IMG/VR virus record: IMGVR_UViG_3300021185_003947
Direction: 5' to 3' (one strand)
DNA from: a virus
Taxonomy: Duplodnaviria > Caudoviricetes
Length of the DNA stretch: 64,000 nt
Made by a program: the position numbers and the translations under genes. Shown piece after piece: positions 1 to 60,288 of the stretch (position 1 is the first letter of the stretch; each line of letters starts with the position of its first letter). The notes under the pieces were generated by a model. The model had not been told where the DNA came from. It did no database searches and saw only the letters and a list, made by a program, of their open reading frames with translations.

Positions 1-3000
1 GTTCGCCAAGCTTCATCGGCCCTGCGCTCTTTATAACCAAATAGCAATCCGCCATTTTGGATTTTACCAATACCACTGTCTAATGTAAATCCAGTTTTAA
101 ATATAGCACTATCTTCAAATGTAAACTGTGTAGTAGCTTTTGCTGAACCGCTATCCCCTTCACTAGCAATATTTAAATTACCACTTAATAAAATTTGTGG
201 ATTGCGAAGATTTCTATCACCAATAACAGAAAGAGGACCTTTAACTGTAAGAGATGCATCATTCTTTCTGCTTCTTGTTTTAACTTTAATTTGATCGCCG
301 ACTGCCAATCTTGTATTAGCTTCTGAATCATAAATGTGTATGAGAGAGTTAGTTACTTCTTCCCATTTCTCTCCACCAGATTCAAGTTCAATATCATTAA
401 TAAATATTTGTGTTAAACCATTTTTAATATATTCAAGAACATTAGGTGAAGTTGAATTATCAGTATCTTGAAGTCTTAGTCCACTGCGGGACGAGATTGT
501 AGATGAAGTTAAAAGATGTAAACCTCTATTAATAATGTCAATAGAATGAGTATGTGTCATCGACGGAGTACTGTCATATCCAGGAATAGATTGCTCGCGT
601 ATTTTAATTTGATTGCCATTGACCCAAGCCCAATCACCGGTAGATATTCCGTTTCCAACAGCGTTTAGCGTTCCTTTTGTTAAAGCGGTAGAATCAAATC
701 CACTAGTTAATGGGCTAGTAACATCTTTAGGAGTAACTAACATCACACTCATAAAATTTGAGTCTAGTCCAGGCGTTCCACTGATACTAAAGTCTGCTGC
801 AGATTCACCATAGGGCAGACCTGGGCTTGTCGCAGACGTCAGTATTGAATATAATACAGGATCACCATAAATTATTGAATTAGGATGTGTGATGAAATAG
901 CTATCAGCTGCATTTACAGTAAAATTAAATATGTATTCTGAATCTACTGTTACCTTAGATCCTTCAATAATACTATGTCCACCAGCGCTAAATCCAGAAT
1001 CAACTCTTACATCACCTCTAACGTATAACTTAGATCCAGGATGATCGATAGGTGCACTATCAGCGCCAATCGCCACGTTAGCATATGAGTTAAACCCAAC
1101 ACCACCAAAATAAAGAGTATGACCATCAGCGGATCTTCTCCAATGTGAACTATCATTAGCATGATGAAGAATATAGTTAGGACTAATAATAGTTTTCATA
1201 TAACCAGAATCAATAACAGAAGAAATAACTGCCGAGTCAATATTCATTCTATTTTTTACATAATCATTAGTAACAATCGTTGCAATATAGTCTTCGGTTG
1301 GCCAAGCAGCTTCGTTTCCAAGATTATTAGTAGTAATAATAGGAGATTTATGATCAATTGCAGCTTGACGTGAAGCCTTGTCTTCTGCTGGCCTAGAAGC
1401 ATAAGCAGCTGGAATATCTATTCTAGCTTTACCATCCATATCAAGCTGGAATTTCCATCTTGCATTCCCAGTTGCATCGACTTCTTCATAATCTGCAGCA
1501 TTGACATCTATATTATTTTTATTAATTACGACTGGATTTGTTCTGCCCGGGCTTTGGTCATTAATAAGCTGATTGCCACCTTTTAATGACCAGAAATTAT
1601 CAATAGAAACTCTTGCTTGAACATATGCAGAATCAAGATGATTTTCTAGAATTGGAATAAGTCCACCAGTTGGTCTTACAACAAAACTGTCAAATGACAT
1701 TCTTTCACCAGTACCAGGATTATCACCAATTGTAAATGTACTACCTGCAATAGATTGTCTAAAATGAACTGAGCCTTCTACAGTAGCGCTATCACCAACA
1801 GTTAATTTACCTAGAACATTTAAATTAGCGCTTGAAGTAGTTTTTTGTTTAGGTATGACATGAATATAATTTGCTGAGGTAGTAACTGGAGTTCCGGTAT
1901 AATCTGCGCTTAAAACTGGAACTGTTAATACATCATCTGTAAATAATTCAAATTTATTAGTATAACCAGCATCTAGTAATCCATCAGCATTTGCATCAGG
2001 TCCAACAAAATATGTATTTCCATTTAGATCTGTAAATGTTCCGCCAGTAATACCTGATAATCTAACACCATCACCTACTGTTAATCCATGAGCTGTTGAT
2101 GTAATTGTTAAATTTGTTCCGGTAGTATCAAATGCCCATGCAGCGCCTGAGACGGGTGCTGCAACTATTACAACTTCATATGATCCGGTCGGTGGGCTTG
2201 GAACAAATATAGTTTCACTTTGAGTATCAAGTGCAGTAGTACATGCTCTATCAGTAAATAACTCAAAATTATTAGCGTCAACTGCCTGAACAAAATATAC
2301 ATTATCAGCAGCAGATGTATAATTAAAGCTACTAGAAGGTCCAGCATTTCCATCAGTGAGACCACTAAATTTAACAGCTAATCCAGATCCAGCCCCACCT
2401 CCACCAGGATGCGTCAATGCAGTACCACCTCCACCGGCTGATCCAAGTAAATGCCCGCCAGCAGGTACGTTTACAACCGCCGCCGCGGCTTTGGAAACAG
2501 AAAATGCTGATGTTTGTACAGAGGGTGGAGTAACCGGGGTAGTTTTTATTACACCAGTAACAACAACTGTTGGAGCAGTTCCGGCAATATAGTCTTTAAT
2601 ATTAAGACCGCCGATGTGAAGTGTAGCACCACTATCAATATTTACATCACCATGAATATCTAATGTATAATTTCTATTAAAGCCAGAATTATAAATTGTA
2701 GAATTACCATGTGCCACCTGCGCAGTTTTACCAATCATAATATTGGTATTATTTAAACCTTTATTAACAAGAGCGCTATCAAAAAGACTTGATCCAGAAT
2801 CGTTAAAAATTGCTGGCTTCATAATCACAATGCCGTTTTCTAATCCTGTAGGGATAAACGCATTTCCACCTATGAAAGTTGTATTTTTAGCCCCACCGCC
2901 AGTTATTCCACCATATTGTGGATTTACATTATTAACTGAATGTGAATCTTTCCAACCAGCACCAATAATATAATTGTTAGTAAAATTATCATGGAAAACT

Positions 3001-50428: not shown

Positions 50429-50513
50429 TGGTGTGGATGGAGAGACTCGAACTCTCACGCCGTAAAGCACTAGAACCTAAATCTAGCGTGTCTACCAATT
50501 TCACCACATCCAC
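50429..50513 (-). tRNA. trnL: tRNA-Leu(UAG)
   Basis: 85-nt class II cloverleaf folded by hand; loop TTTAGGT; encoded CCA. Confidence 0.93.
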
Positions 50514-57223: not shown

Positions 57224-57991
57224 CTACTCTTTCATATTTTTTATATTCTCTATGTAGCAATCCATACTATGATCACTAAAATTATCTATCTTTAATTTCA
57301 TGACACCAGCAGCCATGCCTTTTAGTCTATCCCACAATCTTTTAAAACCAGATATTTTTACTATTTGACCTTCTGAATTCATATAATGTTCTGTTCCATG
57401 ATGTCTATAACCCATCATTACTAAAGGTACACGAGTAACAACGTCGTTATTATTTACGAATCTATGATGGATTACGCCAAGTGAATTACAATATTTTTTA
57501 AAGCCTACACGAGGAGAACCAAACGTATACAATTCAACCGGATCGTTTAAAAATAAATTATGTAGACATCTTGAGGCCATAATAGTTGCCATGCCTGCTC
57601 CGAGTGAATGACCAGTAAACCAAAGAGTCTTGCCATTATTCTGTTTTCTAGTTAAATCTTCGCATATTGCAGGCCACAATTCATCAACTTCTGATTTAAA
57701 TCCTTTATGAACTCTAGATACTGTTTCTGCCATTACCGGAATCGATTTTAAGTCTGCTTTAATGTCATTGAATTCATTTGGTTGAGTTCCTCGACAAGCT
57801 ATAATACAATCATACTTATTCATAAATCTATATGCCTGTGCGCCATTGACATCATAAAATTCAATTGTATTGAATTCAAGTCTACGCGCAGCGCCCGTAG
57901 CTTCTTTAAGGTCAGAGTACGCAATTGCTGATAGTCGAGCAAACAAGAGGCTTCTGGCTTTAAAACTTAATTGATTTATTGGTCGTGCCAT
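57224..57991 (-). CDS. Class 3 lipase-like alpha/beta hydrolase
   Basis: IACRGT, VHKGF, FTGHSLG (GxSxG), TFGSPRVG, NNNDVVTRVP. Confidence 0.9.
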   Translation of the reverse strand: MARPINQLSFKARSLLFARLSAIAYSDLKEATGAARRLEFNTIEFYDVNGAQAYRFMNKYDCIIACRGTQPNEFNDIKADLKSIPVMAETVSRVHKGFKSEVDELWPAICEDLTRKQNNGKTLWFTGHSLGAGMATIMASRCLHNLFLNDPVELYTFGSPRVGFKKYCNSLGVIHHRFVNNNDVVTRVPLVMMGYRHHGTEHYMNSEGQIVKISGFKRLWDRLKGMAAGVMKLKIDNFSDHSMDCYIENIKNMKE

Positions 57992-58035: not shown

Positions 58036-58227
58036 TTACTCACTTAGAAAGACTGCTTCGCCTTTAATGACTCCACCTTCTTCACGAAGTTCAGCTTTTG
58101 CTTTTTTTTCATCTTCTAACTTTTTAATTTTAGCTGCCTGATCTCTAATAATTTTCTGTTGTGCTTCAATAGTCATAAATTGTTTATCCAATTCTGATGT
58201 TTGAGGAAATTCAATAATTTTACTCAT
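58036..58227 (-). CDS. Small coiled-coil protein
   Basis: 63 aa with a GGAG RBS. Confidence 0.65.
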   Translation of the reverse strand: MSKIIEFPQTSELDKQFMTIEAQQKIIRDQAAKIKKLEDEKKAKAELREEGGVIKGEAVFLSE

Positions 58228-58261
58228 TCGTTATCTCCTTATAATATATATTATATATATT

Positions 58262-58371
58262 TGGCTCCAAGGGCAGGATTCGAACCTGCACGAATATAAA
58301 TATTCTTTTGCTAAGACTATATATTCACAACATAAACAGTGCTGCGTGTCTACCTATTCCACCACCTTGGA
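58262..58371 (-). tRNA. Atypical 110-nt tRNA with a GUU (Asn) anticodon and a 38-nt variable arm
   Basis: Acceptor TCCAAGG/CCTTGGA, G73, CCA; anticodon arm CAGCA-CTGTTTA-TGTTG; T arm GCAGG-TTCGAAT-CCTGC. Confidence 0.8.
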
Positions 58372-58377
58372 TTATTC

Positions 58378-59202
58378 TTACTTTTTAAGAGTATCGATCG
58401 CGCTTATCATGCGTGTCATACCAATTCCACCACCAACTCTTGGAAAGAAATCAAATTCAAGAAACTTTTCAAGTTCTGTTTCAACACGATCTTTACCAAA
58501 TAATTGGTTAATAAGACCAGCATATTCTCCATTTGAAATAGTATGAAATGTATCTCGCATTTGGTCTTTATCAGTACTGCGTTCTGCACTACCAATTGTT
58601 TCCATACCACCAAGGATAACATCAATCTTCTTACTTGTACCATCTTCATTTCTTGACATATTCCAAAATGGACTTGTAAATTCAGGAAATTCTGTAATCA
58701 TAGAACTACCAAAACTAGCTTCCATTGCTAACTCGTGCTGAGCATCTAATTCTGTAGTAGAACTTAGACCGTAATGTTGTTGCCATTCACGATATGTTTT
58801 TTCTGTTGGAATATCAAATCCTAAGTGATTACATAATTGATATTCCATAGTCTTAAGATCATCGATGTCTCCTGGCATTTCAAATTCAAACATCGGAAAA
58901 ATCGTATCATGTCTTCCAGGAATTGCATTTGGTTCTTGTCTATACGAAGTCGAGACACAAAAAAACCCCTTCGAAGAGGGGCGAGTTAATAATTCATATT
59001 CCAACCACATCTGGCCAGTTTGAGGAAGAGGCCATATTTGCCCTTCATAATTATATGTTGCTACATTTTCTGGATCTTCACATGCAGCTAAAATGCTTAA
59101 TCGGTTTTGTGTATGTACTTCTTCAAAGCCTCTATTCAAAAAAAATGACCTTAAAAGGTCAACTGCTTTTGTAAATTTTTTTGGTTCAATCAATTGCGTC
59201 AC
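58378..59202 (-). CDS. Class IIb aminoacyl-tRNA synthetase paralog (Asp/Asn/Lys family), catalytic domain only
   Basis: Motif 1 LRSFFLNRGFEEVHT, motif 2 YRQE...RH..IFPMFEFE, motif 3 GGGIGMTRM; no N-terminal anticodon-binding domain. Confidence 0.85.
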   Translation of the reverse strand: MTQLIEPKKFTKAVDLLRSFFLNRGFEEVHTQNRLSILAACEDPENVATYNYEGQIWPLPQTGQMWLEYELLTRPSSKGFFCVSTSYRQEPNAIPGRHDTIFPMFEFEMPGDIDDLKTMEYQLCNHLGFDIPTEKTYREWQQHYGLSSTTELDAQHELAMEASFGSSMITEFPEFTSPFWNMSRNEDGTSKKIDVILGGMETIGSAERSTDKDQMRDTFHTISNGEYAGLINQLFGKDRVETELEKFLEFDFFPRVGGGIGMTRMISAIDTLKK

Positions 59203-60202: not shown

Positions 60203-60288
60203 TGGTGCTCTCACCCGGACTTGAACCGGGACGGCCTATGGCCAACAGATTTTAAGTCTGGCGTGTCTACCTATTCCACCATGAGAGC
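60203..60288 (-). tRNA. trnL: tRNA-Leu(UAA)
   Basis: 86-nt class II cloverleaf; loop CTTAAAA; encoded CCA. Confidence 0.93.

Follow-up and report, generated by a model that had tools for sequence, protein, structure and literature searches.

The DNA analysed here, referred to as the window, is a 64,000 nt stretch of the IMG/VR virus record IMGVR_UViG_3300021185_003947. It belongs to a marine T4-like myovirus, encoding gp32 and a T4 baseplate protein, and has a GC content of about 33%. We describe two adjacent genes on its minus strand. The upstream gene codes for a small protein resembling the catalytic core of asparaginyl-tRNA synthetase (AsnRS), and its stop codon lies 6 nt before the second gene, which specifies a 110 nt tRNA with the anticodon GUU. 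The components are as follows.

58378..59202, minus strand: class IIb aminoacyl-tRNA synthetase catalytic core of 274 aa (P0001), without an anticodon-binding domain (from Pfam, PHROG and an AlphaFold model, AF2)
58262..58371, minus strand: class II-shaped tRNA(GUU) gene, 110 nt including the encoded CCA (from Rfam, a covariance model and the minimum free energy, MFE, fold)
58365-58371 paired with 58266-58272, minus strand: acceptor stem UCCAAGG/CCUUGGA, 7 bp, with U1-A72 (read from the sequence)
58346..58362, minus strand: D-arm with a 3 bp stem (GUG/CAC), an 11 nt loop and the G13.A22 layout, of the Leu or class II type (from the sequence and the family consensus)
58328..58344, minus strand: anticodon arm CAGCA-CUGUUUA-UGUUG, with G34U35U36 at 58337-58335 and U37 at 58334
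58290..58327, minus strand: variable region, 38 nt (from the MFE fold and from hairpin conservation relative to shuffled sequences)
58273..58289, minus strand: T-arm GCAGG-UUCGAAU-CCUGC with a canonical T-loop (from the sequence and the Rfam alignment)
58262..58265, minus strand: discriminator G73 (58265) followed by the encoded CCA (58264-58262; from the sequence)

The tRNA gene was noted in a preliminary description, and the features recorded there (the acceptor stem, G73, CCA, the GUU anticodon, U37, the T-arm and the 38 nt hairpin) are all present, on the minus strand. The MFE fold of the 110 nt is a cloverleaf with a long two-tier variable hairpin (-30.2 kcal/mol, z = -2.1), in which an internal loop or bulge separates the 7 bp basal helix (GAAUAUA/UAUAUUC) from a UCUU/AAGA inner helix, which is capped by a GCAA-containing loop; positions 8-9 are UG. 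Rfam RF00005 (tRNA) matches 58265-58371 with 44.7 bits against a gathering score of 29, handling the arm as an insertion, and a family covariance model (R1) built from relatives gives the window copy 96.7 bits. ARAGORN makes no tRNA call at the locus. The exact tRNA sequence is found in DNA runs from eight studies (P1-P8), and contigs from four RNA libraries in three studies span the tRNA and its flanks contiguously and unspliced, with none skipping the arm; these contigs are possibly DNA-derived and cannot show RNA ends or levels.

The gene is thus confirmed as a genuine, conserved tRNA gene in which the marks of tRNA-Asn (GUU, G73 and U1-A72) are placed on a class II body with U37. In E. coli the tRNA-Asn identity set consists of G34U35U36 and G73, U1-A72 is typical of bacterial tRNA-Asn, and an A37 next to an anticodon ending in U36 is the site of the t6A (N6-threonylcarbamoyladenosine) modification. 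The window tRNA shares GUU, G73, U1-A72, the T-loop and the encoded CCA with canonical tRNA-Asn(GUU), such as the products of E. coli asnT-W or a 76 nt phage copy described below, but its variable region is 38 nt rather than 4-5 nt, it has U37 in place of A37, its D-arm has a 3 bp stem and an 11 nt loop, and some of its relatives carry C or A at position 33. The long variable hairpin and Leu-type D-arm are shared with class II tRNAs (bacterial tRNA-Leu, tRNA-Ser and tRNA-Tyr), whereas the anticodon, discriminator and first pair are of the Asn type and not those of Leu (which has A73), Ser or Tyr, and the arm is about twice the usual length. The acceptor and T stems have the standard 7/5 geometry with all 12 pairs standard, and not the 8/4 or 9/3 geometry of allo-tRNAs.

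Relatives were collected from IMG/VR as two sets of loci: 80 loci found with the window enzyme as the query (76-99% identity), and 81 found with a relative that is 55% identical to the window enzyme (52-99% identity to that query). The covariance model for the first set was built from 45 distinct sequences; the seeds were picked by a pattern that demands paired stems, and model-based searches give the same picture. Among these 45 relatives, 13 of the 20 stem pairs have double compensatory changes, including four of the seven acceptor pairs, all five anticodon stem pairs covary, and 99.9% of cells are paired, compared with 44-64% when the partners are slid. Conservation is strong where asparagine identity would be read: across 113 distinct members GUU is invariant (113/113), U1-A72 is present in 110, and G73 in all 111 that are complete. 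The canonical T-loop and the D-loop G18G19 are kept, and CCA is encoded in 91 members. Position 37 is U in 92 members, A in 13 and G in eight, and at position 33 there are 99 members with U, eight with C and six with A; U37 in the window is therefore the family norm.

The enzyme is a reduced one, with an N-terminal oligonucleotide-binding (OB) fold anticodon-binding domain absent from P0001. P0001 matches only Pfam tRNA-synt_2, the class II family for Asp, Lys and Asn (6e-14), and phrog_29758, a PHROG without an assigned function; none of the curated synthetase models is matched at its cut-off, the NCBIfam asnS model TIGR00457 giving 18.7 bits against 342.6, and the two NCBIfam models for asparagine synthetase A giving 15.2 and 11.7 bits where 389 and 322 would be needed. 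An AF2 model built from 54 diverse homologues has a predicted local distance difference test (pLDDT) score of 96.4, and its best Foldseek matches are AsnRS catalytic domains, with the alignment confined to residues ~131-411 of a 430 aa AsnRS. Using VIA-align, the closest structures are AsnRS (Z 27.6; root mean square deviation 2.0 A over 246 residues) and archaeal AspRS (26.6), followed by archaeal asparagine synthetase A (24.1) and GenX and LysRS (both 23.9), and the family profile gives a similar order (AsnRS 59.7 bits, archaeal AspRS 55.9, asparagine synthetase A 33.3). Class II motifs 1-3 and the AsnRS pocket motif QxxQxxLE are all found, with motif 2 (YRQE...GRH), ETIGSAER and motif 3 (GGGIGMTR) intact in P0001. 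The segment QTGQMWLE (QtgQm.LE in the family) aligns to QSSQLYLE of AsnRS and not to QSPQLYKQ of AspRS; the Leu-Glu that replaces Lys-Gln, the FEFE glutamate and the GSAER arginine presumably indicate an Asn-type pocket. Modelling thus identifies the protein with confidence as a catalytic core like that of AsnRS, and its active-site motifs are of the AsnRS type.

The pairing of this enzyme with a tRNA(GUU) is not peculiar to the window. Throughout the family, which is represented in hundreds of ocean phage contigs, the tRNA lies 6-230 nt downstream of a 270-290 aa synthetase core that lacks an anticodon-binding domain. It is directly behind the enzyme at 75 of 80 loci in the first set and 70 of 81 in the second, or 145 of 161 together. 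The open reading frames (ORFs) next to 141 of the pairs fall into ~75 families upstream and 62 downstream, although the ORF calling was crude. Among cultured phages the enzyme is found only in Prochlorococcus phages P-SSM2, P-SSM5 and P-SSM7 (65-70% identity), and the genomic context of the pair differs between P-SSM2 and P-SSM7. In the P-SSM5 and P-SSM7 records a "tRNA-Asn" of 85-86 nt comes immediately after a gene labelled "tRNA ligase"; the P-SSM2 record places its tRNA-Asn feature elsewhere, but ARAGORN finds a tRNA gene of 85-88 nt right behind the enzyme in all three. A blastn search of cultured phages with a member carrying a 29 nt arm (L038) yielded no match. A 2010 comparison of cyanomyoviruses does no more than list the gene, as the sporadically occurring "tRNA ligase" cluster T4-GC 194, and does not analyse it (PMC3037559). 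Because the neighbours are so diverse, and because P-SSM2 and P-SSM7 carry the pair in different regions, these comparisons argue that the adjacency of enzyme and tRNA is selected and not merely inherited. Four roles had been put forward in the preliminary description: charging by the adjacent phage enzyme, mischarging by host SerRS, donation of an amino acid in a non-ribosomal reaction, and a decoy for anticodon nucleases. Only the first has gained evidence, from the adjacency at 145 of the 161 loci and the changing flanks, and the charging itself is what we infer from them.

We note several other features of the immediate surroundings. A class 3 lipase gene (window 57224-57991, minus strand) lies just downstream of the pair, beyond a 63 aa ORF; a lipase gene is also just downstream in P-SSM2 and P-SSM5, and the neighbours in P-SSM7 are different. 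The Rfam freshwater-2 motif has a sub-threshold match at window 58225-58289 (minus strand; 19.8 bits versus 49.9), which probably arose by chance; it covers the 3' end of the tRNA together with the ribosome-binding site of the following ORF. In a local scan for promoters and terminators, the interval separating the two genes contained no promoter scoring above chance. The sequence TATAAATA, the consensus of T4 late promoters, is present at 58295-58302 (plus strand), inside the variable arm and on the opposite strand, but with 16 occurrences in the window and 14.3 expected it is at chance level and was rejected; UAUUUA, a conserved 3'-strand of the long arms, complements TAAATA.

The main rival to a charging relationship is that the two genes cooperate only at the level of a pathway. 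The enzyme would be a tRNA-independent asparagine synthetase and the tRNA would be charged by the full-length AsnRS of the host, which reads GUU and G73, so that more Asn and more tRNA-Asn are supplied to an AAU-rich genome. We regard this as unlikely, but it accounts for several observations. The invariant G34U35U36 and G73 are the positions read by full-length AsnRS, archaeal asparagine synthetase A is likewise built without an anticodon domain and matches the model (Z 24.1, target coverage 0.66), and there are bacterial and huge-phage members of the enzyme family without a partner tRNA. The AsnRS and AspRS cores are nonetheless better matches than asparagine synthetase A both by profile (59.7 vs 33.3 bits) and by structure (Z 27.6 vs 24.1). 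Neither the aberrant tRNA (its class II body, U37, and C or A at 33) nor the fixed spacing of 6-230 nt behind the enzyme amid changing neighbours is explained in this way. Moreover, class II synthetases approach the variable-loop side of the tRNA, as in the AspRS-tRNA complex, and a 38 nt arm should therefore clash with a full-length AsnRS and hinder charging by the host. Archaeal asparagine synthetase A (PDB 3P8T/3REU), a paralogue of AsnRS, and EpmA/GenX, a paralogue of LysRS, are likewise core-only class IIb proteins of ~290-325 aa that act without tRNA, on free Asp or on elongation factor P (EF-P), respectively; the phage enzyme differs from both in being closer to true AsnRS cores and in being genetically tied to a tRNA.

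The variable arm has its own pattern of evolution. The variable region ranges from 5 to 39 nt among the 113 distinct members and is at least 35 nt in 14 distinct sequences, seven of which have the 38 nt form, such that the window arm is at the long extreme of the family. RNAalifold on MAFFT alignments did not recover the arm, as arms of unequal length fall out of register, and the evidence rests instead on folds of individual sequences compared with shuffles. All arms of at least 13 nt form a hairpin, and of the 69 distinct ones 68 have 3 bp or more in the basal helix. This helix averages 6.7 bp, versus 3.0 bp in shuffled arms (200 shuffles, maximum 3.6), and the arms have an average MFE of -6.1 kcal/mol versus -2.0. 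Arms of 28-39 nt in the first set retain the 3'-strand UAUUUA and most retain the GCAA loop motif, while the 5' strand varies through G.U/A.U changes and basal pairs are altered on both sides. A length of 38-39 nt is reached in two groups, that of the window and that of L132 and L138 in the more divergent set, with no arm sequence in common. Short and long arms are interleaved in the leaf order of a FastTree enzyme tree, which was used for leaf order only, the outgroup being too distant for reliable rooting.

It had been suggested that normal-length relatives, or an arm without covariation, would mark the arm as a decaying insertion. Relatives of normal length do exist, with variable regions of 5-9 nt in some lineages, but decay into a pseudogene is scarcely credible. 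Although ARAGORN makes no call and arm length is highly variable, as a neutral insertion would predict, the four standard stems are intact and covarying, and the hairpin is maintained with compensatory changes far above the level in shuffles. Seven distinct sequences share the 38 nt length, a second group has reached 38-39 nt with an unrelated arm, and the exact window sequence recurs across the eight studies. The arm is a maintained, rapidly evolving accessory, and is not essential to the pair because some lineages have just 5-9 nt in its place.

A further question is whether the tRNA is a chimera. The preliminary description reported that a 21 nt block is identical to the D-arm region of tRNA-Leu(UAA), and this is correct: the block, TGGTGGAATAGGTAGACACGC, is present exactly twice in the window, at 58344-58364 and at 60261-60281 within tRNA-Leu(UAA), with none expected from shuffles. 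A copy with two mismatches is present in tRNA-Leu(UAG) at 50486-50506. However, the entire tRNA(GUU) family, including members with a 5 nt variable loop, has a Leu-like D-arm as its consensus (UGGUGRAAUWGGUAGACACG), and in one 133 kb IMG/VR contig (G007) the D-arms of the odd tRNA and of the resident tRNA-Leu differ at several positions. The 21/21 identity is therefore not evidence of a recent fusion with the phage's own tRNA-Leu, a reading that the family-wide consensus, the tRNA-Leu(UAG) near-match and the G007 differences do not support; on these comparisons, the identity is best seen as reflecting a shared class II consensus or at most a local conversion. Nor is the tRNA a one-off, being one member of a large family.

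The class II body also raises the prospect of mistranslation, with the arm and G73 making the tRNA a substrate of host SerRS, or the enzyme loading an amino acid other than Asn, so that AAY codons are partly read as something else. A long variable arm and G73 are indeed identity features of bacterial tRNA-Ser. Allo-tRNAs with a long arm and G73 are able to insert Ser in E. coli (PMC5389517). However, members with variable regions of 5-17 nt have the same enzyme and anticodon, and the long arm is thus not a defining feature; the D-arm is Leu-like rather than Ser-like, and the enzyme pocket motifs are of the AsnRS type. Among the 14,780 codons in the window AAU ranks third and Asn accounts for 6.35%, and misreading some 6% of codons would harm the phage's own proteins. 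We consider recoding to be highly improbable.

A plausible scenario, to which we give about an even chance of being correct, is that the phage encodes a private, anticodon-blind charging enzyme together with its own tRNA for AAY codons. The gene would then specify a functional tRNA for the Asn codons AAU and AAC that works as a unit with the minimal AsnRS-like enzyme. Both genes would be transcribed together, with the tRNA excised from the 3' end of the transcript; the enzyme would activate an Asn-type amino acid, presumably Asn, and attach it by recognizing the acceptor end (U1-A72, G73 and CCA) and not the anticodon. Through its non-canonical parts (the variable hairpin, U37 and, among relatives, a base other than U at 33) the tRNA would be kept apart from the host factors that act on ordinary tRNA-Asn: full-length AsnRS, enzymes of tRNA modification, and nucleases that cut the anticodon loop. 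The long arm may have become tolerable through the loss of the enzyme's anticodon domain. The net effect would be a private and defence-resistant supply of Asn-tRNA for ribosomal use in a phage genome in which AAU is the third most used codon. An indirect route, in which Asp is attached first and converted to Asn, appears less likely: bacterial GatCAB reads U1-A72 but rejects enlarged D-loops (PMC2811023), which by analogy would disfavour a tRNA with a Leu-type D-loop. A literature search on the host AsnRS or GatCAB route in Prochlorococcus found nothing.

One precedent for such a pair is CysRS* of Desulfobacterales, a synthetase without an anticodon-binding domain that has been proposed to serve the irregular selC* tRNA-Cys (Mukai et al. 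2016, PMC5389517). In both cases a domain-less synthetase paralogue is found beside an irregular long-arm tRNA with an unusual first pair, and a dedicated pair is proposed. The differences are that CysRS* is derived from a class I synthetase and its tRNA has an 8/4 structure and an opal anticodon, whereas the window pair has a class IIb AsnRS-like core and a 7/5 tRNA with a sense anticodon, and is phage-borne. The other known parallel is that of the phage T5 tRNAs that evade the PARIS nuclease AriB, detailed below.

Several observations weigh against a private charging pair. U37, and C or A at 33, are unfavourable for normal decoding, and an anticodon-blind enzyme does not by itself explain the invariant GUU, for which either ribosomal decoding or an anticodon-reading host enzyme is needed. 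The 5-9 nt variable regions mean that the long arm is not essential to whatever the pair does at its core. Sixteen of the 161 loci lack the tRNA, eleven of them from the second set and five from the first; the five are on fragments of 10 kb or less with no copy elsewhere on them. Two huge-phage homologues (44-49% identity) have no class II tRNA(GUU) nearby, one of these genomes having a class I tRNA-Asn elsewhere, and two distant homologues (~33% identity; L084:2501-3349 and L085:2501-3361) are in bacterial contexts with no tRNA nearby. The enzyme family is thus wider than the pairing, and the core function of the enzyme may not need this tRNA. At least one phage contig, G007, carries a canonical 76 nt tRNA-Asn in addition to the odd one, so that the odd tRNA is not simply the phage's only Asn decoder. 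The host is also uncertain: for gp32, identity to the best matches is no higher than 54-58%, and phages of both OM43 and Synechococcus are among them.

Some of these relatives have features of their own. In G007 the canonical tRNA-Asn(GUU) (L185:2823-2898, minus strand) is located in a tRNA cluster, and the long-arm tRNA(GUU) (L210:1501-1600, plus strand) is behind the enzyme. A permuted gene resembling a transfer-messenger RNA (tmRNA) is reported by ARAGORN ~1 kb from the pair (L210:130-545, minus strand), with the tag peptide ANANRAPEMALAA*. The neighbours of the two bacterial homologues are LpxB and ribosomal L28/L33 for L084, and a glycosyltransferase and a photolyase for L085; the L085 protein lacks the arginines of motifs 2 and 3. 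A GC-rich 191 kb phage contig from Logan (L099; GC ~62%) encodes a 49% identical enzyme (P0008) and, ~420 nt and one ORF past its gene, a class II tRNA (2767-2871, plus strand) with U1-A72, G73 and an arm of ~33 nt. Its anticodon loop, CGGUCAC, reads GUC (Asp) with G33, and this single example may be an Asp-anticodon version of the pair. The pair also occurs on contigs binned into metagenome-assembled genomes of Bacteroidetes (L211:2028-2965, 3.6 kb) and Candidatus Neomarinimicrobiota (L212:7048-7998, a 335 kb contig). Mis-binning of phage DNA is the probable reason, and checking is needed before either contig is read as a host signal.

The unusual anticodon loop also invites an interpretation in which the tRNA does not decode at all, serving instead as an aminoacyl carrier for non-ribosomal transfer or as a decoy for a host anticodon nuclease or other defence protein that binds tRNA-Asn, with the enzyme keeping it charged or serving it in some other way. 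Nearly all elongator tRNAs have U33 and a purine at 37, but the family does not conserve them; the more distant L099 pair departs further, with G33, and some phages carry a canonical tRNA-Asn as well. Moreover, tRNA-Asn is a documented target of a defence nuclease: AriB of the PARIS system cleaves tRNA-Asn(GUU), its targets sharing U36-A-A-U39, and phage T5 tRNA variants altered near the cleavage site rescue infection (PMC12409363). As in those T5 escape tRNAs, the window tRNA is a phage tRNA-Asn(GUU) with changes beside the anticodon, reading U-U-A-U at the corresponding positions; the T5 tRNAs, in contrast, are class I and have no private synthetase. We nonetheless consider a non-decoding role distinctly unlikely. 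Nothing departs from the canonical form in the T-loop, in the GG of the D-loop or in the 7/5 geometry of the acceptor and T stems. GUU stays invariant amid varying neighbours as codon reading predicts, the pair has no consistently linked transferase gene, and a decoy would need neither an encoded CCA nor a synthetase.

A bolder form of the private charging pair, which we think rather unlikely, is that marine phages have naturally evolved a minimal, anticodon-blind synthetase and a tRNA orthogonal to those of the host, the aberrant loop (U37, non-U33) and fast-evolving giant arm being shaped by an arms race with host defences that target tRNAs, or else that the pair has a function off the decoding pathway, either as a non-ribosomal donor or in loading an amino acid other than Asn. 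Our literature search found no study analysing the enzyme-tRNA pair. Annotations of the genes in P-SSM2, P-SSM5 and P-SSM7 were already available, without analysis.

The pair is a common feature of ocean phages that has apparently gone unstudied. Homologues of the enzyme in metagenomes form more than 8,000 clusters at 90% identity, with 448 clusters at 50% identity having E <= 1e-10, and there are more than 588 matches in IMG/VR. Annotation is affected, as long-arm members are missed by ARAGORN (the 110 nt window copy) or miscalled, the G007 copy being reported as "tRNA-Asp atc". If the private charging pair is correct, a synthetase core without an anticodon domain acting on a class II-shaped tRNA-Asn would be a new natural mode of tRNA identity, and a compact orthogonal pair would be available for code expansion and genetic-code engineering. 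It would also mean that phages insulate a whole decoding channel from the host and, should the arms-race or off-decoding form apply, the pair would represent a new class of phage translation-takeover module.

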